Counted from the first letter of the stretch, positions 41,539 to 52,743 are shown. The stretch: DNA of 64,000 nt from Candidatus Hermodarchaeota archaeon (GCA_048885865.1 JBHLLF010000015.1:12271-76270), one strand, 5' to 3'. The notes: generated by a model from the sequence alone, not told the origin. Made by a program: numbers and translations.

Positions 41539-41829
41539 TCATCTCATTGCCAGAATCAATGTAAGTTGAACGGCAACCATGGAATCAGGTCCGTGTATCC
41601 TGATTATCTCTTTAGCTGCCTCAAGATTGGGACCATAGAGACACTTCCGCATGTCTTGTAGGTCCGGAACACGTCTGAGCAAGCGGAGCTTAGTGAGACG
41701 CTTGATTGCTGAACTAACGGTTCTGGAAGGTAGTTTAGTCTTACTCGTGATTTCCTTAGGACTCATAGGACCGCCTTGAGCCAGACTCCGCAAGACAACC
41801 AGCGCGCTACCAGGGAGCTGAAAAGCCAC
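41539..41829 (-). CDS. MarR-like winged-helix regulator
   Basis: GPMSPKEI..LPSRTVS.AIKRL...RVPDLQDMR; paralog of 11182..11427. Confidence 0.8.
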   Translation of the reverse strand: MAFQLPGSALVVLRSLAQGGPMSPKEITSKTKLPSRTVSSAIKRLTKLRLLRRVPDLQDMRKCLYGPNLEAAKEIIRIHGPDSMVAVQLTLILAMR

Positions 41830-43307
41830 TATCCAGACCTCCTTCGATACAACACAACAATGACTGCAATCACAACGACCAATCCAGAAGCAATCACCAA
41901 TTGCATTGTGGTATCCTCACGAGAAACAGATTCCAAGGCATCAGCTGCTGCAACCCATGCGTCTGCTATCTCTATAAGATGGTCACGAATGTCCTCAAGA
42001 TCTTGCTCGTAGTATTCAATAGCACTCTCAAGGTCTTCAGTTTCGTAGTAGAGGTCTGCAATATTGGTGAGTGCTTGAGTCAGAATTGTACCATTCACAG
42101 TATAGTATGGATCAATCAAGCTCGCATTGTCACTCAGCATCGCCAAGTGTGAAACTGCTGGACTGGCGGATTCCAAAAAGGGCTCTAAATCCAAGCCTGC
42201 CAAGATGCCTGGCAATGTCTTGAGACTCTCACGATAGGACAGATATTGCAGAGTAATGCCCATTTCCATCTGTAATCCTGTAATAATCAATGTGTAGTAG
42301 CGATCATCTTTGTCGGAGCTCACATCATCTAGATAGGCGATTATTGTTTCCTTTGTAAGGTCATAGCTGAGACCTCTAAAGGCATCTGCTCCGAAGTTGG
42401 CGTAGAAGACATTCTCTAGACCCTCGCCATATGATGAACGCACACCTCTCAGCCTCTCACAGATATATGAAACAAGACTAGATTCAAAATCATCTGGAGG
42501 ACCACTACCGGCCTTAACTACCACAGACCCATAGCCCATGTCTTTCATTGCATTTTGTAATGTGCTATAATTGACTGAGTATAACCATCGACCATCATCA
42601 GGAAATCCAAAGTTCTCACCGATAGCTCCAACTCCCGGATCCATGATTGTGACCTCACTTGCAGTGTCATTGTATCCAATACAGAGAACTGTATGTCCTG
42701 AGCCTGTATCTGCTGATTGTATTCCCATGGTTCTCGCAAAATCATAGTCAGAAGGGGGAAGGTAATATGGATCGGTCCAAATAGCCAAGGGATGCCCATC
42801 ATCAACAGTGGTTCGTATCAAGTCTAGAGTGTCAGTCCAGCCATCGATGTCAGTGTATTTCAATCCCCAAGCTGCCATTGCCGGACCATATACTATGCCA
42901 ATTCCTATATCATCGTCCATGTAGATGTCGATGTCTAAACCGTAAAGATTAGCTATTGTAGGCAAAGGTTCCATCTGTCGAAGCATAGCACCTGGTAGAA
43001 ACACTGTCAAATCTTCATAGCGGATGTAACCCGCTGAGAAGCCGATCCCGGAAGCTGCGAAGAGACTGTGAAGATCCAATGGTGCTCCTGCATGCTGTAG
43101 TGCCATTGAGAGTGCGGACCACTGACAAAAGCCATTGATCTCCTGCCATTGATACGGAACTCCCGATATGTGACCATACCCATCACTTGCAGGGGTATAG
43201 CCAGGGCTAGGGATAGCTAGCCCCGGCTCGGAGATAGAAGAAGGAAGCTGCATTACTGTTACGCAGATTGCTGCAACAATCATTATTGCGACACGAATCT
43301 TATTCAA
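41829..43307 (-). CDS. Cell-surface papain-like (C39/BtrH-like) cysteine peptidase with C-terminal anchor
   Basis: VPYQWQE.NGFC..SALSM (Cys), GHTVL.IGY (His), IMDPG (Asp); signal peptide; TM+RRR tail. Confidence 0.7.
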   Translation of the reverse strand: MNKIRVAIMIVAAICVTVMQLPSSISEPGLAIPSPGYTPASDGYGHISGVPYQWQEINGFCQWSALSMALQHAGAPLDLHSLFAASGIGFSAGYIRYEDLTVFLPGAMLRQMEPLPTIANLYGLDIDIYMDDDIGIGIVYGPAMAAWGLKYTDIDGWTDTLDLIRTTVDDGHPLAIWTDPYYLPPSDYDFARTMGIQSADTGSGHTVLCIGYNDTASEVTIMDPGVGAIGENFGFPDDGRWLYSVNYSTLQNAMKDMGYGSVVVKAGSGPPDDFESSLVSYICERLRGVRSSYGEGLENVFYANFGADAFRGLSYDLTKETIIAYLDDVSSDKDDRYYTLIITGLQMEMGITLQYLSYRESLKTLPGILAGLDLEPFLESASPAVSHLAMLSDNASLIDPYYTVNGTILTQALTNIADLYYETEDLESAIEYYEQDLEDIRDHLIEIADAWVAAADALESVSREDTTMQLVIASGLVVVIAVIVVLYRRRSG

Positions 43308-43437: not shown

Positions 43438-44208
43438 TCACCTCCAAGCTAACAGCTTGCTCTTGTCGATTTGCCCTCCAACAATCTTGAGATATGCATC
43501 CTCAAGGTCCCTAGTTCCTGTGGAAGCCACAATCTCCTCAGGTGAACCAACAGTCACCAAAAATCCATCGTTGATTATACCAACAATATCGCAGGCATCC
43601 TCCGCGAATGAGGTCTGGTGTGTGCAGATGAAGAACGTGGTGTCGGTTTCTTCAGCAAGCACATGGATGAGGTCCTTGACGAGGGCTCCCGCACTTGGAT
43701 CTAGCCTGGATGTGGGTTCATCTAGGAAGACAAGCCTTGGTTCGTGAAGAATAGTGGAGGCGACGAGGACCTTCTGTTTCATTCCACTTGAGTAGGTGTC
43801 AAGGAGATCATCCTGACGCCCTTCAAGCCCTAGCATGTTCAGCAGACTGTCAATTCGCCTCCGGAGAGACTTGCCCTCCAGGTTGTTCAATGCCCCTATG
43901 AACTCGAGGAACTCGATGGCAGAGAGCTTTGAATAGAGACCAGGGGTTTCGGGCAGGAGACCAGTCATAGACTTGATCTCTCCTGCCTTCTCGACGATGT
44001 CCATCCCTAGTACTTTTGCAGTGCCGCTCGTGGGTTTCATAAGTCCCGAGAGCATGCGTACCGTAGTTGTCTTTCCTGCACCGTTTGGCCCTAGGAAGCC
44101 GAATCGACCTCCCGAGGCGACTTCCAGGTCGAGGTTTCTGACAGCTTGGATTGGACCAAAGGTCTTGTTTAGTCCTAGGGTTTTGATGGATATGCCGTTG
44201 TTGCCCAT
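43438..44208 (-). CDS. ABC exporter ATP-binding subunit
   Basis: GPNGAGKTT, YSSGMKQK, FLDEPT. Confidence 0.93.
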   Translation of the reverse strand: MGNNGISIKTLGLNKTFGPIQAVRNLDLEVASGGRFGFLGPNGAGKTTTVRMLSGLMKPTSGTAKVLGMDIVEKAGEIKSMTGLLPETPGLYSKLSAIEFLEFIGALNNLEGKSLRRRIDSLLNMLGLEGRQDDLLDTYSSGMKQKVLVASTILHEPRLVFLDEPTSRLDPSAGALVKDLIHVLAEETDTTFFICTHQTSFAEDACDIVGIINDGFLVTVGSPEEIVASTGTRDLEDAYLKIVGGQIDKSKLLAWR

Positions 44209-44213
44209 CGAAT

Positions 44214-45905
44214 CTACACCTCCACCTTTCCTAGGCTCCTGGTACCAAGAACCAACATCAGACCGCCCACAAGCAGTAGCGCAGTAGGTCCAAGCAGTAT
44301 CTCCACAATATAGAAACCATTGATACCAAAGATACTCTCCATGAATCCAAAGAGGCTGAAGCCGAGTCCTATGTCGAGGAAAATCGCTGCAAAGAGGGGT
44401 CCAATCAGCGTAAACTGCGTCAGCATCATCGATGTAATTAGCACCGTCTGATGTGCAGAAGACTTGGTGTCCTCATAGTTCGGGTTCTGAGCGGTTACAC
44501 CCATAGCAACCATTACAGCACCACAGACCACAACAAATGCAGTGATGAAGATCTGGATTGTCGTTAGGACAGGTAGACTGAATATAATAGCCATCGCCAG
44601 GCTTGGTGCCAGACTTAGGGGCACAGCCATTAGGAAACCTGTCGCAATGCGCGCTCTCATGAAGCGTGAGGCTCCCTTTGGTGCACTGCGAATTATCCAT
44701 AGTTGGTCTTTCGATTCTAGGAATCCTGTACCAGCAAATGGAAACACCCCGACTATCCCAATCATGATGCTGACCATGGGCAATATCTCTGCGGCTTCAA
44801 ACACCTCTCCCTCCATGATTGTCATCTGTTGGATTAGGATTGGCATGATTATTGACAATACGACTCCATAGAATATCTTAGAGAGATTCTGCGCCTTTCT
44901 ACCAAAGTCCTTTAAGCTGACGGCAGTGAGTGCGCCAAAAGGACCCTTTGCTACACTTCGGACACCTCGAATGAAGATGTTCTCGCGGCCAACAGTAGTC
45001 ACTGTTTCAGTCCGTGCTCCTGCGCTTATCGTGAAAATCCTGTCAGCTGCCACTATTGCTATGGGTACGAATGCCAAACCAAAGGCAGACATTAGCACTG
45101 CACTTGTCAGCATGTCTAGTTGGAGGATGGCACCGAATGCAAGAATCTGAGATCCAGTCAGACCGATTCCGTTGTATGTGATGGCGACCCAACTAACCAA
45201 GTCAGCAGGCCAAGTGAAGGGCATGACTAGGAATGCGTTCATTCCAAGGATATCTGACAGCTGTGGCATGAAGAACATCAGACCATACATAGGTATGATG
45301 ACTATGAGTGCAATCACAAAAGAGAGTGCCTTTGCGATATCGTTGCCACGTGACGAGTCCCCAAGCCTTGCCTGAACTACTGCTGTAATGAAGTTCGCTA
45401 ACCAAATGGTCGATATGACCATTAAAGCGATTACAGTGTAGACCAATGCCTGACCCACGATTGAAACCTCAAAGGCAAGCATGAAGGGGGAAATCAGTAA
45501 TGGGGCAAAGACCATTACAATCAATCCATACAAGGGCATTTTGCCGACAAATGTCCCGGTCAGAATGTCCCTTGTCCTAACATTGTTAGACAGAAAGATC
45601 TCCCATTGTCCAATCTTGATCTCTTGCAGAGAGTATGAGAGGGGGTACAGTAGTAGGAGTGCCCATAGGAAGAGCATCACTGTCCGCATGAGTCCAGGAA
45701 ACATCACCATCAATAGTGTACGAATAGTTTCCAGCGGAATGATTAACTGGATGAATCCATTCACAAGCATCGGAGCCAAGTACACAGCCCATATTGCCGC
45801 CAGTGCAAACATCAGACCGACTACCGCTTTTCTGTGCTTCCGCATGCCTGCTGTCAGTACGAAGAACTCAGCCTTTGCGATATGATACCACTTGCGTGTC
45901 ATCAC
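44214..45905 (-). CDS. ABC exporter permease (large multi-TM)
   Basis: About 14 hydrophobic segments; ESKDQLWIIRSAP; flanked by two ATPase genes. Confidence 0.8.
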   Translation of the reverse strand: MMTRKWYHIAKAEFFVLTAGMRKHRKAVVGLMFALAAIWAVYLAPMLVNGFIQLIIPLETIRTLLMVMFPGLMRTVMLFLWALLLLYPLSYSLQEIKIGQWEIFLSNNVRTRDILTGTFVGKMPLYGLIVMVFAPLLISPFMLAFEVSIVGQALVYTVIALMVISTIWLANFITAVVQARLGDSSRGNDIAKALSFVIALIVIIPMYGLMFFMPQLSDILGMNAFLVMPFTWPADLVSWVAITYNGIGLTGSQILAFGAILQLDMLTSAVLMSAFGLAFVPIAIVAADRIFTISAGARTETVTTVGRENIFIRGVRSVAKGPFGALTAVSLKDFGRKAQNLSKIFYGVVLSIIMPILIQQMTIMEGEVFEAAEILPMVSIMIGIVGVFPFAGTGFLESKDQLWIIRSAPKGASRFMRARIATGFLMAVPLSLAPSLAMAIIFSLPVLTTIQIFITAFVVVCGAVMVAMGVTAQNPNYEDTKSSAHQTVLITSMMLTQFTLIGPLFAAIFLDIGLGFSLFGFMESIFGINGFYIVEILLGPTALLLVGGLMLVLGTRSLGKVEV

Positions 45906-45906
45906 T

Positions 45907-46686
45907 TCACCTCCAGGCTAGGAGCGCATCGCGGTCGATCTTGCCGCCGACTATGTCTAGGTACGCGGCTTCCAGATTCCGCGCATGTGACGCCTCAATG
46001 ATGTCTTGAGGTGCACCCTGTGTGACAATCGCACCCTCGTTGAGGATCGCAATGACATCACAGACGTCTTCCGCAAAGCTCGTCATGTGAGTGCAGATGA
46101 AGAACGTTGTATCTGTTTCCTCAGAGAGGACTAAGATCATGTCCTTGACTATGGCACTTGCACTGGGATCAAGCCGTGAAGTTGGTTCGTCAAGAAAGAC
46201 GACCTTGGGCTCGTGTAGAAGTGTCGAGGCGACAAGGACCTTCTGCTTCATGCCTGATGAGTAAGACTCCAGCAAGTCGTCCTGTCTGCCCTCAAGTCCC
46301 AGTATGCCAAGTAGGCTGTCAATACGTCTGTGCACACCATCACCATTCCTACCATTGAGTGCTCCAATAAACTCTAGGAACTCAACAGCAGACAGCTTTG
46401 AGTAAAGACCGGGGGTCTCTGGGAGTAGGCCTGTTATTGCCTTGATAGCGTCGCGATCTTTGCTAACATCCATGCCGCATACTTCGGCATATCCGCTAGT
46501 CTGTTTTAATAGACCTGAAAGTATACGGACTGTGGTTGTCTTCCCAGCTCCGTTAGGACCAAGGAAGCCAAACCTGTTGCCCGACATCACCTGCAGGTCT
46601 AGGTCACGTACGGCTCGAACAGAGTCGAAAGACTTGTTCAGCCGCTCGGTTCGAATTGTTATTCCGTTTCTAGCCAACTTGCTCAC
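45907..46686 (-). CDS. ABC exporter ATP-binding subunit, close paralog of 43438..44208
   Basis: Same Walker and signature motifs; both end in LLAWR. Confidence 0.93.
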   Translation of the reverse strand: MSKLARNGITIRTERLNKSFDSVRAVRDLDLQVMSGNRFGFLGPNGAGKTTTVRILSGLLKQTSGYAEVCGMDVSKDRDAIKAITGLLPETPGLYSKLSAVEFLEFIGALNGRNGDGVHRRIDSLLGILGLEGRQDDLLESYSSGMKQKVLVASTLLHEPKVVFLDEPTSRLDPSASAIVKDMILVLSEETDTTFFICTHMTSFAEDVCDVIAILNEGAIVTQGAPQDIIEASHARNLEAAYLDIVGGKIDRDALLAWR

Positions 46687-46827
46687 CGAAATTGTCTTGC
46701 AGTAAATGTTTACCGCAATCTATGTAAACAATCACCACATTTAAATATAAACTTTCCCAAGTACGTAGTGAAGAATTACCCGAAAGCTTTATAGCTGGGT
46801 AATGACGAAAACAGTGAGGATAAGAAG

Positions 46828-47400
46828 ATGCTACTCTCAGTTCACGAAGCAACGGTCTGGTGGGAATTCCAGCAGGGAAAGACCACTGGTGAAATTGCGA
46901 GTGACTATGAGGGCCACGTAGTAGCTCCTCCATATGTCCATGCCCTTTTCGAGCAGTCTGACAAGAGATCTGAGAGAGAAGGCATTGAGGATGTACAACT
47001 TAAGGATACACAGTATGTTTCTAGAGTTCTTAACAGAGCTCGTTCCAAGATTGAAAAAGCTCTCAGAGACCAGGCGAAAAGTCATCGGCTTGATATTGAA
47101 ACTGTTCAAGACTACAAGGGGCTACTAAGAGGATTCGATTACCAGGCAAACACAGAGGTGTATATCATCTATACGATGAAGCTTGGCGTTGTGGTCTGGT
47201 ATAAGCACGACTCCTATGCTGGCAAGCTCTGTCCAGATTGTCCAAAGAAGGAAGAATGCCGTGAAACCCTTGATGCCATTATGACTGAATACAACATTAC
47301 GCTCCGACCAGACGAGGAACAGCTCTACATGACTGAACAATCAATTGCCATCTTCAATAAACTCGCTGCCAAAGAAGTACCGAGGTATAAGAGAGGATAA
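46828..47400 (+). CDS. Putative HTH regulator with C-terminal metal site
   Basis: GKTTGEIA...QYVSRVLNRARSKI (split HTH); WYKH...CPDC....C. Confidence 0.6.
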   Translation: MLLSVHEATVWWEFQQGKTTGEIASDYEGHVVAPPYVHALFEQSDKRSEREGIEDVQLKDTQYVSRVLNRARSKIEKALRDQAKSHRLDIETVQDYKGLLRGFDYQANTEVYIIYTMKLGVVVWYKHDSYAGKLCPDCPKKEECRETLDAIMTEYNITLRPDEEQLYMTEQSIAIFNKLAAKEVPRYKRG

Positions 47401-47416: not shown

Positions 47417-48169
47417 ATGGGTCGGGATTATGAAGGGAAATTAATCAGGCCACCAATGGAAACAGTGGCTTATGGGAAAGTGTTCAAGCCCGCAACTGCA
47501 TTGAGGAACAAGTACTGGTTCATTACGATAGTGACCTTAGTGACGATGTATGCAATAACCGCAGGCACGTTTCTTGGACTCTTCTACTTGTTATTCATGT
47601 TCGACAGCGACCTCTTTCAGTTCTCAGCTTGGCTCGACGCGGTGTGGACGCCGATCAACTTCTGGTTCTGGACTATCTCCCTCATCATAGTTGTCCCGGT
47701 GTTCGTACTGATTCCAATCTATCTGAATCGGTTTGAATATTCGGTGAGAGGCGAGTCAGGGAAGTCACTGCCTGAGATATACGTCAAGAAAGGACTCATC
47801 GATGTCACGGAGAAACATGTGCCGCTTAGAACCATCACAAATATAGCGAGCAAGACTGGTCCCTTCGACCGGCTGTTTGGTATAGGCAATGTTGAGATTC
47901 ATACTGCCGGATATTCTGGCGGGCCGTATGAAGGAGGAAAGCCGGAAGAGAAGATAGAGGGCATAGTGTTCTATCAGGAGCTGCGGGACTTCATTCTGAG
48001 TGAGATGAGGAGCCTAAAAGGCACTTATGCAACGACAACCGAGGTGCTTACAGAGCAGGACAGTACAATTCGAGTGGGTTCGGTTGAGGAAGCAACACTA
48101 GCCACACTGCAAGACCTTCGCCATATACTACGTCGAATAGAAGACAAACTTGACAGGAGTGGAGTATGA
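47417..48169 (+). CDS. 2-TM bacterial PH-domain (bPH_2/YdbS-like) protein, copy 1
   Basis: YVKKGLI.VTEKHVP.RTITNI...GPFDRLFGIG.VEI.TAG. Confidence 0.85.
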   Translation: MGRDYEGKLIRPPMETVAYGKVFKPATALRNKYWFITIVTLVTMYAITAGTFLGLFYLLFMFDSDLFQFSAWLDAVWTPINFWFWTISLIIVVPVFVLIPIYLNRFEYSVRGESGKSLPEIYVKKGLIDVTEKHVPLRTITNIASKTGPFDRLFGIGNVEIHTAGYSGGPYEGGKPEEKIEGIVFYQELRDFILSEMRSLKGTYATTTEVLTEQDSTIRVGSVEEATLATLQDLRHILRRIEDKLDRSGV

Positions 48170-48170
48170 C

Positions 48171-48938
48171 ATGAGCGGTTATTATGACGAGAGAGTGATC
48201 AAGCCTCCTATGGAGAGGATAGCCAGTGGGAAGATCTTCAAGCCAGCCAGGTCCTTAATCTTCAAGGGTTGGTTACAAGCTATCATGTTCTTTGCATTCT
48301 GGTGGATTGTCGGAATGACAGCTTGGACTGGCCTGTCATTCATAATCTTGGTATTCGATAGAGGGCTGACCCCGCTTCAACATGCTCAGTATATGGGAAC
48401 GTGGTGGTGGATTGTAAACTTATGGTTCTGGGGAGTAGTTTGCATCATTCTAGGTATCGCTTTCGCGGTTTGGGCTGCATATGTTCTGAAAATCGAGTAT
48501 TCGATTTTGGCTGAGTCAGGAAGAGCAATGCCAGAGATCTATGTGAAGAAAGGCATTCTCACAGTGACTGAGAAGCATGTGCCCTTCAGAACAATAACTT
48601 CCATCTTCTCGAAGAAAGGTGTGTTCGACAGGTTGTTTGGGATTGGGAGTGTTGAGATTCAGACTGCCGGGATGACAGGAGGCCCATCCCCTGGCGGGTT
48701 CCAACCAAGGCCAGAGGAGAAACTCGAGGGGCTGCCATACTTCAATGAACTCCGCGACTTCATTCTAAGAGAGCTTCGGAGATTCACAGGTCAATATGTC
48801 ACAGGAACTGAAGTCGTTGTTCCTGAACAAGACAGGGCATTTGCAGACCTTGGACAAGGAGAAATACTGCGAACACTTCAGGACGTGCGGGACATTCTCA
48901 GGAGGATGGATGAAAAGCTTGACAGGAGGGATATATGA
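48171..48938 (+). CDS. bPH_2 membrane protein, copy 2
   Basis: Same motifs; ATG 48171 just after upstream TGA with GGAG site. Confidence 0.85.
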   Translation: MSGYYDERVIKPPMERIASGKIFKPARSLIFKGWLQAIMFFAFWWIVGMTAWTGLSFIILVFDRGLTPLQHAQYMGTWWWIVNLWFWGVVCIILGIAFAVWAAYVLKIEYSILAESGRAMPEIYVKKGILTVTEKHVPFRTITSIFSKKGVFDRLFGIGSVEIQTAGMTGGPSPGGFQPRPEEKLEGLPYFNELRDFILRELRRFTGQYVTGTEVVVPEQDRAFADLGQGEILRTLQDVRDILRRMDEKLDRRDI

Positions 48939-48939
48939 G

Positions 48940-49701
48940 ATGAGTGATAGCAAAGTGATCAAACCTCCTTTGGAGGAAATCAAGAGCGGAAAGGTGTTCA
49001 AGCCCGCCACGGCATTCGTATACAAGGGCTGGTTTGGGCTGATTCTAGGAGCCATAGGACTCTGGATCTTTGCAATGCTAGTATGGCTCGGAACAGCGTA
49101 TCTGGTCATTGTTTTCGATAGTGGAGCCACATTCTCAAGCTTCATTGTCTACCTCAACATCTGGTGGTGGCCAGTCAACTTCTGGTGGTGGGTAGTCAAC
49201 GCGTTCTGGCTCATCCCTGCAATTCTCGTATGGCCCTTCTATGTAAACAGGTTCGAGTACTCAGTGATAGCCCATTCAGGTGAAACAATGCCAGAGATCT
49301 ATGTCCGCAAGGGAATCATCACGGTCACCGAGAAACACGTACCATTTCGTACTATAACAAACATATCAAGTAAGGCGGGTCCGATTGATAGACTCTTCAA
49401 AATTGGGAGTGTTGAGATTCAGACTGCAGGTTTCTCGGGAGGGGCTCAGGCTGGGGCGAAACCCGAAGAGAAGCTAGAAGGACTTCATATCTTTGAATCT
49501 GTGAGAGACTTTGTGCTAAGAGAGCTTCGGAGATTCACAGGCCAGTATGTCACCACGACCGAGGTAGTCGCTCCTACTGACAAGCCAGTGCAAAGAATGG
49601 ATGACACGCTCCAAGACGAAATACTAATCACACTACGGCAGATTAGAGATAAGATGGGCCCACTAGATGAAATCTTGGACCTTCTTAAGAAAAGAGCATA
49701 G
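48940..49701 (+). CDS. bPH_2 membrane protein, copy 3
   Basis: Same motifs; ATG 48940 with GGAGG. Confidence 0.85.
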   Translation: MSDSKVIKPPLEEIKSGKVFKPATAFVYKGWFGLILGAIGLWIFAMLVWLGTAYLVIVFDSGATFSSFIVYLNIWWWPVNFWWWVVNAFWLIPAILVWPFYVNRFEYSVIAHSGETMPEIYVRKGIITVTEKHVPFRTITNISSKAGPIDRLFKIGSVEIQTAGFSGGAQAGAKPEEKLEGLHIFESVRDFVLRELRRFTGQYVTTTEVVAPTDKPVQRMDDTLQDEILITLRQIRDKMGPLDEILDLLKKRA

Positions 49702-49713
49702 GCGAGTCAAGGA

Positions 49714-50436
49714 ATGAGCAGTGACGGAAAAGTAATCAAACCTCCAATTGAGGAAGTAAAGAGCGGAAAGGTGTTCAAGCCATCAAAGGCCTTCCGCAAC
49801 AAGAACTGGGTTTTGATGATATCTATAGCATTGGGAATCTGGGTGACCTTTATCTCCATCATGCTTGGAATTGGGTATCTCGCGTTTGGTCTAATTGGAC
49901 AGTCAGGCTTTCAGGGCTGGATCGATGTTTTCTGGAATGTGATCAATCCTTGGTACTGGCTGCTGACTGCTGTCTGGTTCATCCCTGCCTTTATCCTCTA
50001 CCCAATCTACATCAACGCATTCGAATATTCAGTCATTGCTGAGTCAGGTGAAACGATGCCTGAGATATACGTGAAGAAAGGTCTCATCAACATCACACGC
50101 AAGCACGTTCCCCTGAGAACGATTACTAACATATCAACCCGGGCAGGTCCATTTGACCGCATCTTTGGAATTGGCACTGTTGAGGTGGAAACAGCTGGAG
50201 CCTCAGGACCACAAGTTGGGGGATCGGCGGAGGAGCGTCTGGAAGGGTTGGTCTTCTATGAAGAGCTCCGTGACTTCATCCTACGCGAGTTGCGCAGATT
50301 TAAGGATCCGTACGTTACTGGGACAGAGGTAGTGATTCCAGAGGACGAGAAGATTATCAGAGTGGGCAGTTCAATAGAAGAAGAGGTCCTCAAGGTGCTT
50401 GAGGATATCCGCGACCTACTAGGAGATCGCAGATAG
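49714..50436 (+). CDS. bPH_2 membrane protein, copy 4
   Basis: Same motifs; C-terminal EEEVLKVLEDIRDLL. Confidence 0.85.
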   Translation: MSSDGKVIKPPIEEVKSGKVFKPSKAFRNKNWVLMISIALGIWVTFISIMLGIGYLAFGLIGQSGFQGWIDVFWNVINPWYWLLTAVWFIPAFILYPIYINAFEYSVIAESGETMPEIYVKKGLINITRKHVPLRTITNISTRAGPFDRIFGIGTVEVETAGASGPQVGGSAEERLEGLVFYEELRDFILRELRRFKDPYVTGTEVVIPEDEKIIRVGSSIEEEVLKVLEDIRDLLGDRR

Positions 50437-50447
50437 GAGTGAGTGTC

Positions 50448-51203
50448 ATGAGGGAGGGATCTGCTCGAGTCATCAAGCCCCCCAGCGATGAGTTCGAGAG
50501 TGGCAGAATATTTAGACCTCTCCCTTCCCTGCGTCACAAGAAATGGTTGAAATTCATTCTGGCGGCGTTTGCATTCTATGGAGTATTTCTTTTCGCATTC
50601 TTTGGACCACCCATTGTCACGGTATTCATAATCGAATTCATACCCTTGAACCTTTATCTTCCCATGGACAGTTGGATTGTTGGAAGCCAGATCTATTGGC
50701 TAATTACTCCGTTTTGGCTCATTCCGGCACTAGTCTGGGTTCATCTCTATGTAAGAAGCATCGAGTATTCTGTTGTAGGTTGGCAGGGAGAAACAATGCC
50801 AGAGATCTACCAGAAGAAGGGCATCATCACGATAACAAAGAAGCATGTGCCATTCAAGAACATTACCCACGTGAAGAACAGAGTTGGGATATTTGATAGA
50901 CTGTATGGGATTGGCTGTGTGAAGGTAGAAACGGCTGGTGAGAAAGGGGGAATGCAAGCCACAGGGGTGCTGACACTCATTATTTCGCGACTGTTTTCTT
51001 CCAGTTCCGAAGAAAACATAGAGGGCATTCGATTCCACGAGGAATTGAAGAGATTCATCCTGAAAGAGATGCGCGGATTTGGGAAAGCTCCTCTTCATGT
51101 TTCCAGGGAGAGAAGAGTCACCTCCAAGGGTCTTTTCACAGAACGTACTCTGCGAGCCTTTCAGGATGTCAGAGATGCGCTAAGAACTGAAGCACAAAGG
51201 TGA
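50448..51203 (+). CDS. bPH_2 membrane protein, copy 5 (most divergent)
   Basis: VIKPP..GRIFRP, MPEIY.KKG, KHVPF.NIT, DRLYGIG.V.VETAG. Confidence 0.83.
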   Translation: MREGSARVIKPPSDEFESGRIFRPLPSLRHKKWLKFILAAFAFYGVFLFAFFGPPIVTVFIIEFIPLNLYLPMDSWIVGSQIYWLITPFWLIPALVWVHLYVRSIEYSVVGWQGETMPEIYQKKGIITITKKHVPFKNITHVKNRVGIFDRLYGIGCVKVETAGEKGGMQATGVLTLIISRLFSSSSEENIEGIRFHEELKRFILKEMRGFGKAPLHVSRERRVTSKGLFTERTLRAFQDVRDALRTEAQR

Positions 51204-51299
51204 ATGATAATGCGATCTATGAAGTATGTATTGGTGCTATTATTGGGATTGTTGATGTTTTTCTTCTTCCTGGCTCTCTACCTCTCTGGACTTCTCTAA
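51204..51299 (+). CDS. 31-aa single-TM peptide
   Basis: MIMRSMKYVLVLLLGLLMFFFFLALYLSGLL; ATG abuts the stop of copy 5. Confidence 0.5.
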   Translation: MIMRSMKYVLVLLLGLLMFFFFLALYLSGLL

Positions 51300-51906: not shown

Positions 51907-52743
51907 TTACAGACGGATGTCAAGACTGTCAGTGATTCTGACAAAGCTAAGAAGGCTCTTCTCGGCTGCTTCGCGGGGGCGGACCTCAAAGACATAGAGT
52001 ACAGGATTCTCCAATCCATCCAGAAGACGCAAGGGACGCTCAAAGTATATCGACCCATCCCCGACTATTTGATGCTCGCCGTATAGATCGCTTCGGTCAT
52101 GGACATGAACGACTTCTATGGCATCTTTGTGTTTCTCAAAAACAGCCCAGTCATCTTCGTTAAGCTTGGGCTCATAGAGTTTTGGAATATCAAGGCAAAG
52201 CTTCAGGCCTCTTGGCACCATTTTGTCAATTGCTTCACGCACAATTGGATTCCATGATGAGTTCTCCAGAGCAATATTCGCATGAACTCTGGAGTGAGTG
52301 ATAAGGTCGTCTAGACTATCACATAGGGTCTGGAGGTATAGCTCAGAATTCTTCTCAGTAAAATCACAGTTTCTAGTTTTCGCCTGCTTGAATGAGGGAG
52401 GAGTTCCTGCGTGGACAACAATGTTGGTCCGGGTTTTACTCAAGTCACGCGCAAAGTCAATTATATCTCGAAAGTACTCAAGAATTGCATTTCTAATGAT
52501 GGGGTAGGTACAAAATAAACTCACATCATCCCCTGGAGCGTGAAAACCCCATTCGATTCCAAGCTCATGTGACCTCTGACGTAGCTGCATTCGTTCATAG
52601 AAGGCGACCTTCTCAGGAGACAATTCCGGTACACCAAAATCAGGCACAATTCCATTCCAGACGGTCCCCGACGCATAGTCTAAAGCCTCATGTAGAGACG
52701 TATTATAGACCATATGATAGGCGCGCCTTTGGGGGAGTGGCAT
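51907..52743 (-). CDS. Sugar phosphate isomerase/epimerase (xylose-isomerase-like TIM barrel)
   Basis: FHAP, VVHAG, ALEN, LCLD, HVHD, H..VGDG, FEV. Confidence 0.8.
   Translation of the reverse strand: MPLPQRRAYHMVYNTSLHEALDYASGTVWNGIVPDFGVPELSPEKVAFYERMQLRQRSHELGIEWGFHAPGDDVSLFCTYPIIRNAILEYFRDIIDFARDLSKTRTNIVVHAGTPPSFKQAKTRNCDFTEKNSELYLQTLCDSLDDLITHSRVHANIALENSSWNPIVREAIDKMVPRGLKLCLDIPKLYEPKLNEDDWAVFEKHKDAIEVVHVHDRSDLYGEHQIVGDGSIYFERPLRLLDGLENPVLYVFEVRPREAAEKSLLSFVRITDSLDIRL

Follow-up and report, generated by a model that had tools for sequence, protein, structure and literature searches.

The window analysed here, a stretch of 64,000 nucleotides (nt) from an assembly labelled Candidatus Hermodarchaeota archaeon (GCA_048885865.1, JBHLLF010000015.1:12271-76270), carries five adjacent genes, P1 to P5, for membrane proteins with a pleckstrin-homology (PH) domain. 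The locus raises a simple question: do five such paralogs work together, work apart, or merely sit side by side, and on what would they act? Two parts of the answer are firmly supported: P1-P5 are real and old members of the YdbS-like bPH_2 family, each position with its own ortholog lineage; and a helix-turn-helix (HTH) regulator, a palindrome and a microprotein belong with them to one unit, as does, usually, an ABC-2 exporter of the ATP-binding cassette (ABC) class. As to function we favour, with confidence a little short of even, a mixed PH-protein membrane complex that would act as input to the HTH regulator.

Five intact genes of the bPH_2 family

The array comprises the following genes, with lengths in amino acids (aa), transmembrane (TM) helices and Pfam bPH_2 E-values:

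47417-48169, plus strand: P1, A-type subunit (two TM helices and a predicted split PH domain), 250 aa; bPH_2 E 1.7e-8; first-position ortholog clade
48171-48938, plus strand: P2, A-type subunit, 255 aa; bPH_2 E 1.5e-8; youngest duplicate, sister of P3
48940-49701, plus strand: P3, A-type subunit, 253 aa; bPH_2 E 5.8e-9; ortholog of the second gene in AAPL arrays
49714-50436, plus strand: P4, P-type (penultimate) subunit, 240 aa; bPH_2 E 3e-11; always-penultimate clade of 38 rows
50439-51203, plus strand: P5, L-type (last) subunit, 254 aa; bPH_2 E 1e-6; always-last clade of 38 rows

A first reading of the window, made from the DNA alone (hereafter the sequence-only reading), had described five intact, tightly spaced genes, and this description holds: the frames run along the plus strand from 47417 to 51203 with gaps of 1, 1, 12 and 2 nt, and every start is preceded at 8-14 nt by a GGAG(G)-like motif located within the preceding gene. 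The starts of P2, P3 and P5 were picked by homology (the open reading frame (ORF) lister runs all three further upstream); that of P5 is a GTG at 50439, with an alternative ATG at 50448. All five proteins pass the gathering score of Pfam bPH_2 (PF03703), at 29-44 bits against a cut-off of 22 and E-values of 1e-6 to 3e-11; a search of NCBIfam with the same proteins gave no match, and a sequence search of the PDB with the PH-protein profile gave a single chance-level row (PEN-2, E 0.56).

The copies are 35-52% identical in protein sequence, with 50 invariant columns, and 64-80% identical in nucleotide sequence. The longest identical run between any two is 26 nt, shared by P2 and P3 (48765-48790 and 49516-49541) inside a 69-nt stretch at 80% identity; it is the sole long identical patch among the copies, and fits either the status of P2 and P3 as youngest duplicates or a small conversion tract. 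Given such levels of DNA identity and so short a longest run, gene conversion or recent duplication fails to account for the array. The assembly (3.58 Mb in 117 contigs, 87% complete) holds one further bPH_2 match, a 189-aa frame unlinked to the array (contig C1:164309-164521, minus strand, locus L006, E 5.6e-5).

Paralogs are orthologous by array position

Homologs were taken from about 100 loci and placed in two trees, one of 75 rows (IQ-TREE) and one of 203 rows (FastTree). The closest public loci are labelled Candidatus Thorarchaeota (Asgard), and the more distant ones come from Hermod- and Heimdall-type Asgard genomes and from Bathyarchaeia. In both trees the paralogs cluster by their position in the array and not by genome, which was the pattern that the sequence-only reading had proposed to look for. 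Type L forms a clade of 38 sequences, all of them last genes, with a long stem and 100% Shimodaira-Hasegawa-like (SH-like) support; type P forms a clade of 38 sequences, all of them penultimate genes, for which a small clade m stands in within one lineage; type A takes in all that remain, among them each single-copy gene from Bathyarchaeia and from Hermod-type genomes.

Arrays uncut by contig ends read A (27), AA (4), A-P-L (3), A-m-L (4), AAPL (18) and AAAPL (4 plus the window), so that AAPL is the commonest array and AAAPL that of the window's genus. L is never seen without P or m, nor P without L, and the order is invariant, with L last. P2 and P3 are sister clades, and the four-gene genomes are without one of them; the P2/P3 split is placed by these relationships as the youngest duplication, the one that turned AAPL into AAAPL in the window's genus. 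Across genera, each position retains orthologs at 60-97% identity. Identity in the first TM helix (TM1) is 0.41-0.51 inside the P and L clades of orthologs, as against 0.19-0.29 between paralog types; constraint on the membrane parts is type-specific.

Of the proposal that both copy number and order are fixed, the order stood and the copy number did not, as it runs from one to five. Within the window's genus, 14 of 16 genomes hold the family, with 3-5 copies found in these incomplete assemblies; genomes of the same family as the window have 1-4 copies. Free variation by genome-specific duplication is not what we see: the duplications are old and orderly. The suggestion that the array might be a pentamer fails as a general design, given that most Thorarchaeota have four genes and relatives have one; a heteropentamer with one subunit of each kind is excluded in that role by AAPL being the commonest array and by the A-P-L, AA and A arrays, and a strict one-of-each pentamer is unlikely.

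Narrowly defined, the PH-protein family is small. Of 250 genomes sampled from the phylum, 137 match at E <= 1e-10, and in a library of 1.84 billion representative proteins the profile is matched by only 46 clusters at E <= 1e-30 and by 391 at E <= 1e-10.

A membrane hairpin predicted inside a PH fold

All five proteins begin with the motif I-[KR]-P-P ... G-[KR]-[VI]-F-[KR]-P, followed by two long hydrophobic helices with invariant Trp, a PH core and a C-terminal helix, just as the sequence-only reading had laid out; the two TM helices stand directly N-terminal to the PH domain, both as hydropathy segments and as helices 25-59 and 65-101 of an AlphaFold2 (AF2) model. That reading had also held that cytoplasmic parts are conserved and membrane parts diverged, and the numbers bear it out: identity among the five is 0.50 over the N-terminal 24 residues and 0.59 over the PH core, vs. 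0.25 in TM1, 0.20 in the loop and 0.29 in the second TM helix. The N-terminus carries 5-8 Lys and Arg vs. 3-4 Asp and Glu, and the positive-inside rule predicts the PH domain to lie on the cytoplasmic side, a location that Xu et al. also predicted for the PH-like domain (PMC2817789).

The AF2 model was built for P4 on an alignment of 52 sequences and is of moderate quality (predicted local distance difference test (pLDDT) 71). In it, a strand (16-21) and the two membrane helices are followed by six strands (within 104-179), a helix (182-196), a disordered linker and a last helix (221-239), i.e. seven strands and a C-terminal helix, which is the canonical PH topology. Its best Foldseek matches are the PHb ring proteins 3hsa and 3dcx (probability 0.97-0.99, E ~0.02), and an exhaustive structure comparison returned PH, PTB, FERM-F3 and GRAM domains (86-97 residues aligned, Z 8.0-8.7). 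These alignments begin at model residues 14-17, before the hairpin, and finish near 196-201. The model thereby suggests that G-[KR]-[VI]-F-[KR]-P is probably strand β1, with the membrane hairpin inserted in the β1-β2 loop, which is the loop that faces the membrane in eukaryotic PH domains. Such an arrangement would account for a motif no less conserved than the PH core, and for the view of Xu et al. that the bPH_2 family is without β1 (PMC2817789).

A specific tie to eukaryotic PH domains was considered and rejected: the fold matches (Z ~8) are generic, and the family is bPH_2, present also in Bathyarchaeia. The analysis showed no special link to the eukaryotic PH adaptors that the sequence-only reading had named, nor any evidence bearing on the origin of those adaptors.

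Type L and the downstream microprotein

Type L departs from its neighbours in three respects. The loop TAG...EExLEG holds a conserved hydrophobic insert of 12-14 residues (loop length 22-25 residues vs. 8-11); the Y-x-T-x-T-E linker is found in 0 of 38 L sequences vs. 38 of 38 P sequences; and the last 50 residues carry a net charge of +5.6 in L, -4.3 in P and -2.8 in the remaining sequences. Tails of opposite charge, an invariable order and strict co-occurrence are features that obligate partners would be expected to have.

The unit is wider than P1-P5, since it also takes in a regulator gene upstream (46828-47400) and a small ORF downstream:

51204-51299, plus strand: 31-aa microprotein with a single TM helix; its start abuts the P5 stop (TGAATG)

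Some 30 loci with A..P-L arrays have, -3 to +19 nt after the L gene, a hydrophobic ORF of 30-33 aa. No hydrophobic small ORF follows the array gene in single-copy loci, and only two AA loci have one, in neither case like the conserved ORF (47 aa at +56 nt in one, 31 aa in the other).

An attached HTH regulator

46828-47400, plus strand: up190, 190-aa HTH regulator of Tfx/EnfR-like architecture, stopping 16 nt before P1

In every fetched locus with upstream DNA, a homolog of up190 (50-98% identical) lies at -10 to +27 nt from the first PH gene. The adjacency covers Thorarchaeota, other Asgard lineages, Bathyarchaeia and all single-copy loci, and among 40 relatives full-length up190 and the PH family are found in the same 20 genomes.

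The AF2 model of up190 (pLDDT 94) shows an HTH of the σ70-region-4 type with an insert, a long helix and an α/β domain. Its N-terminus aligns to the HTHs of σ70 region 4, of LuxR-type proteins and of EnfR (PDB 8hno) with a root-mean-square deviation (rmsd) of ~1 Å over ~50 residues, at a weak Z of 4-5; with 8hno the rmsd is 1.0 Å over 51 residues at 26% identity, and the HTH alone aligns. An invariant His and three invariant Cys mark the protein, and in Thorarchaeota its HTH holds an insert of 30-60 residues. A protein atlas points up190 to Tfx and Sigma70_r4 clusters with scores of ~0.8. A Pfam search returned no family at E up to 5 except two chance-level rows, leaving TFX_C (PF14601) and Sigma70_r4 unmatched; NCBIfam and a PDB sequence search with the regulator profile gave no match, and Foldseek nothing significant. 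For the C-terminal domain, searches made with the whole protein, and none with the domain alone, gave no known fold match.

Smaller paralogs of up190 (~157-160 aa, 28% identical, E 2e-15), again without a Pfam family, occur in several copies per Thorarchaeota genome and share the σ4-like HTH and the C-terminal His/Cys domain. They look like an unnamed archaeal regulator family; the gene for one of them lies, in locus L130, ahead of genes whose products are membrane or secreted proteins.

L128:939-1421 (contig C11, window's assembly): up190 paralog
L130:781-1254 (genome G010): up190 paralog
L130:3899-4369 (genome G010): up190 paralog

A palindrome between two divergent operons

The regulator gene is separated from a divergent ABC operon by a short region with three elements:

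46707-46730, no strand assigned: inverted repeat TGTTTAC-N10-GTAAACA, candidate operator of up190, between the regulator and the divergent ABC operon
46740-46752, minus strand: TATA-like element, TTTAAATATAAAC on the plus strand, a conserved block in the alignment
46786-46795, plus strand: CTTTATAGCT, TATA box for the regulator-PH operon; all 11 upstream regions aligned have it unchanged

The palindrome matches once in the 64-kb window (0 of 100 shuffles) and, in exact form, once in the 3.58-Mb assembly. It is exact in 36 fetched loci, and at <=2 mismatches it is present in 47 of 66 loci compared to 1 of 261 background windows. It lies mostly ~95-125 nt upstream of the regulator start; the arms are kept while the spacer varies in sequence and length, and the element also occurs in Hermod-type and several Bathyarchaeia loci. 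An invariant GAGGA precedes the regulator ATG by 8-10 nt.

The TTTAAATATAAAC element could serve the divergent ABC operon, and if it is indeed a minus-strand promoter, the inverted repeat would lie near the predicted transcription start. That the palindrome falls, in the window, between this second TATA-like block and the ABC start codon suggests that binding to it may repress the exporter. A scan with bacterial σ70 promoter and terminator models was uninformative, the host being an archaeon.

An exporter linked in three arrangements

45907-46686, minus strand: ABC ATPase copy 2, DrrA-like (ABC-2 exporter type), first gene of the divergent operon; Pfam ABC_tran 7e-24
44214-45905, minus strand: polytopic permease, 563 aa, between the two ATPases
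43438-44208, minus strand: ABC ATPase copy 1, last gene of the divergent operon; Pfam ABC_tran 2e-25
41829-43307, minus strand: C39-like peptidase/TPR protein, 492 aa, downstream of the ABC operon; Pfam Peptidase_C39_2 1.2e-10 and a weak TPR match
51907-52743, minus strand: xylose-isomerase-like TIM-barrel protein; AP_endonuc_2 3e-11 and a weak CbiR-like match

The best NCBIfam match of ATPase copy 2 is drrA (TIGR01188, 2e-61, below cut-off); copy 1 is ~70% identical to it and is conserved in Thorarchaeota loci. The permease has no Pfam or NCBIfam match, and its orthologs (49-89% identity) adjoin the array in most Thorarchaeota loci; at two loci, L147 (genome G004) and L148 (genome G011), the ABC operon upstream of the array includes a second, paralogous permease at ~43% identity to the first.

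An exporter is found divergent from the array in most Thorarchaeota loci; downstream and on the same strand in the Asgard family f22; and, in one Bathyarchaeia locus, immediately upstream and again on the same strand, where it consists of an ABC-2 permease and a DrrA-like ATPase. The link thus survives rearrangement. The C39-like protein stands beside the ABC genes in two of the four relatives checked that had enough flank (64% and 38% identity). Many Thorarchaeota loci (43 BLAST matches) also have the TIM-barrel gene, downstream of the array and on the other strand, with no functional link evident.

HTH fusions and a second lineage of arrays

The TM-PH module is joined to DNA-binding domains of other classes in other Asgard families. 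Five among the 150 profile matches listed are proteins of 277-301 aa in which an N-terminal winged helix (DUF7347/ArsR-like) precedes two TM helices and bPH_2; the β1 motif is kept after the HTH, and homologs of these proteins carry the names Heimdallarchaeota, Hodarchaeales or Kariarchaeaceae. A further protein, from another Asgard family, carries a C-terminal HTH of the XRE class.

L145:2115-3065, minus strand: ArsR-like winged-helix fusion with N-terminal HTH, divergent from a stand-alone TM-bPH_2 gene
L146:2592-3584, minus strand: TM-bPH_2 protein with C-terminal XRE HTH (bPH_2 4e-17, HTH_3 1e-15), beside a double-XRE protein

In family f22 a regulator gene, three PH genes in tandem and the genes for an ABC ATPase and an ABC-2 permease follow one another on a single strand. 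The regulator is a homolog of up190 (hhalign probability 99.1%), and the product of the middle PH gene is 51% identical to a protein named Hodarchaeales. The triplets form their own position-specific ortholog groups outside the clade of Thorarchaeota, Bathyarchaeia and Hermod-type sequences (98% support), which means that arrays arose at least twice.

Every PH gene in the window and in the ~100 related loci carries one module only, and none encodes a three-module protein of the YdbT kind. Multi-module forms are confined to distant metagenomic relatives: P0093 (857 aa) has five modules of membrane hairpin and bPH_2 in one chain (bPH_2 2.7e-72, five stretches), and P0144 and P0148 have two each.

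Discussion

We propose that P1-P5 would be specialised old paralogs, in the order A-A-A-P-L, of a YdbS-like protein whose PH fold has a membrane hairpin in place of its β1-β2 loop. A single, translationally coupled transcript would encode up190, P1-P5 and the 31-aa peptide, and the products would assemble into a mixed complex, in which several A and P subunits with acidic tails join one L subunit with a basic tail and the peptide, the PH domains being on its cytoplasmic face. Through its diverged hairpins the complex may sense something in or across the membrane, and in response would hold or release up190; the regulator, probably as a dimer, would then bind TGTTTAC-N10-GTAAACA between the two divergent promoters and control, in one direction or the other, both the ABC-2 exporter and its own operon.

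The best clues to function, which the sequence-only reading does not include, are the invariant upstream HTH gene, its candidate palindromic operator, the linked ABC-2 exporter and the HTH fusions of other Asgard lineages. We favour the complex as input of the regulator mainly because three unrelated HTH classes attach to the TM-PH module, as is typical of sensor-output pairs. A hetero-oligomer of the paralogs, which the sequence-only reading had put forward, is plausible in view of positional orthology, fixed order, the co-occurrence of L with P or m, type-specific constraints and gaps of 1-12 nt; and modules that act together have precedents in YdbS/YdbT, DdE/DdF, the five-module P0093 and the PHb rings.

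Several points weigh against this proposal. The evidence for contact of paralog with paralog, or of paralog with regulator, is indirect, and the adjacent regulator could simply control an effector operon. Since single-copy relatives exist, a lone protein is enough, presumably in homo-oligomeric form; and as the number of genes differs between arrays (3, 4, 5), stoichiometry is not set by gene count. The P4 model is only moderate, and its N-terminal strand lies in a low-confidence stretch (mean pLDDT 47 at residues 11-20); the HTH fold matches of up190 are weak (Z 4-5), and up190 does not match the Pfam Tfx models. Finally, the bacterial bPH_2 systems known so far require the protein for peptide export and not for signalling.

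The last point leads to the alternative that survives best, an appreciable though minority possibility: the PH proteins, mixed or not, would work in export or self-protection together with the ABC-2 transporter, much as the YdbS/YdbT-like DdE/DdF do with DdHIJ when leaderless bacteriocins are exported, and the HTH protein would be only the local transcriptional regulator of both operons, taking no signal from the PH proteins. Bacterial C39 peptidases process exported peptides, and the C39-like gene that adjoins the exporter here and in some relatives fits this account, as do the three arrangements in which the exporter is linked to the archaeal module and the finding that pairs of bPH_2 proteins beside an ABC transporter are needed for peptide export in Enterococcus (PMC8657885). 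However, the regulator-PH adjacency is universal, whereas the exporter is absent from many single-copy loci; HTH domains of three unrelated classes, fused or adjacent to the module, would be unusual for transport accessories; and no cationic bacteriocin-like peptide gene was seen, in loci that were not searched systematically for small ORFs, the only conserved small ORF found being that of the 31-aa hydrophobic peptide.

We consider it unlikely that the paralogs do not co-assemble at all, each being a homo-oligomer and the array a collection of sensors or immunity proteins of differing specificity, with divergent membrane and outer segments. Single-copy relatives function alone, divergence is concentrated in the TM hairpin and loop, and arrays arose independently in two Asgard lineages, as would be the case for diversifying receptors. 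Such variants would nevertheless be expected to be gained, lost and reordered freely, and we see instead a fixed order and old duplications; P, L and the microprotein strictly co-occur in ~35 arrays; and L, which lacks features that the others keep and has the opposite tail charge, looks like a partner rather than a stand-alone copy. Neutral tandem duplication without joint function, or decay of some copies, is highly improbable: tandem duplicates are common and P2 and P3 share their 26-nt patch, but all five frames are open, the copies are only 64-80% identical at the DNA level, and positional orthologs at 60-97% identity across genera bespeak purifying selection on each copy.

If the mixed complex does act as input of the regulator, the proposal might extend beyond this locus. 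We raise, as a speculative and on balance doubtful generalisation, a signalling class of Asgard archaea and Bathyarchaeia in which a hairpin-split PH oligomer under the membrane is the input of, or anti-factor for, an adjacent (Tfx-like) or fused (winged-helix or XRE) HTH factor; an obligate hetero-oligomer (A, P, L and microprotein) would have evolved from a homomeric ring by old duplications in Thorarchaeota and, independently, in a second Asgard family. To our knowledge, bPH_2 proteins of the YdbS/YdbT type, a large family in both bacteria and archaea, have no solved membrane structure and no known mechanism, and the available genetics concern only antimicrobial-peptide export or resistance; the signalling class, if true, would give this widespread domain its first mechanistic role. 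The sequence-only reading knew of no description of such an array in archaea, and we likewise found no paper on archaeal or Asgard arrays of this kind in the open-access literature. The locus and its relatives offer testable hypotheses (a pre-hairpin strand that completes the PH fold, three HTH classes, ABC-2 exporters, and the palindrome as likely operator) and, with gene numbers of 1-5, positional orthologs and a second independent expansion, a natural series for the passage from homomeric to heteromeric membrane assembly.

Comparison with known systems

The closest known relatives are the bacterial bPH_2 proteins YdbS/YdbT (Bacillus subtilis) and, from leaderless-bacteriocin loci, DdE/DdF, LnqC/LnqD and Orf7/Orf8 (PF03703; COG3402/COG3428), which have the same domain in the same hairpin-then-PH module. 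Bacterial loci of this kind also place modules side by side in one orientation and are linked to an ABC transporter. YdbT, with three modules, is paired with the one-module YdbS, and DdE and DdF are both required (PMC8657885); one plus three makes four modules in bacteria, and four is also the commonest number in Thorarchaeota, whereas five stand in the single chain of P0093. In the archaeal array each module is a separate gene, and there is no protein with three modules and six TM helices. The array proteins are ~90 aa longer and carry a conserved strand motif at the N-terminus, a linker and a C-terminal helix; the A, P and L position types, the always-attached HTH gene and the trailing microprotein set the array apart, and similarity is undetectable beyond the PH core. 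The export loci of leaderless bacteriocins (DdE/DdF with DdHIJ) likewise have bPH_2 membrane proteins beside an ABC transporter; unlike them, the archaeal locus has no bacteriocin gene in view, within the above limit of the small-ORF search.

PHb domains form oligomeric rings through an open β5 edge (PMC2817789), and the PHb ring proteins (PF08000/DUF1696) are those that Foldseek ranked first for the P4 model. They differ from P4 in being soluble, in belonging to another Pfam family at 12-17% identity, and in lacking the hairpin, and rings are known for PHb and not for bPH_2.

For the regulator, the nearest counterpart is EnfR (TON_1525), a member of the Tfx family that binds as a dimer to a pseudo-palindrome in a promoter (PMC10570040). 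The predicted layout of up190 resembles that of Tfx/EnfR, with an HTH of the σ70-region-4 type, a long helix and a C-terminal α+β domain, of which the HTH alone aligns in structure; the insert in the HTH of Thorarchaeota, and the His and three Cys, which are without counterpart in the description of EnfR, distinguish up190.

Pairs of an extracytoplasmic function (ECF) σ factor and its membrane anti-σ factor, and membrane-tethered one-component regulators, offer an analogy of function only. Archaea do not use σ factors, and the array, unlike the ECF pairs, contains no anti-σ domain; sequestration of up190 by the PH proteins is to be read as an analogy. As in the ECF pairs, a DNA-binding protein of the σ4 type is encoded right before a membrane protein with a cytoplasmic domain, and fused versions occur in relatives; the up190-PH pair is probably autoregulated.

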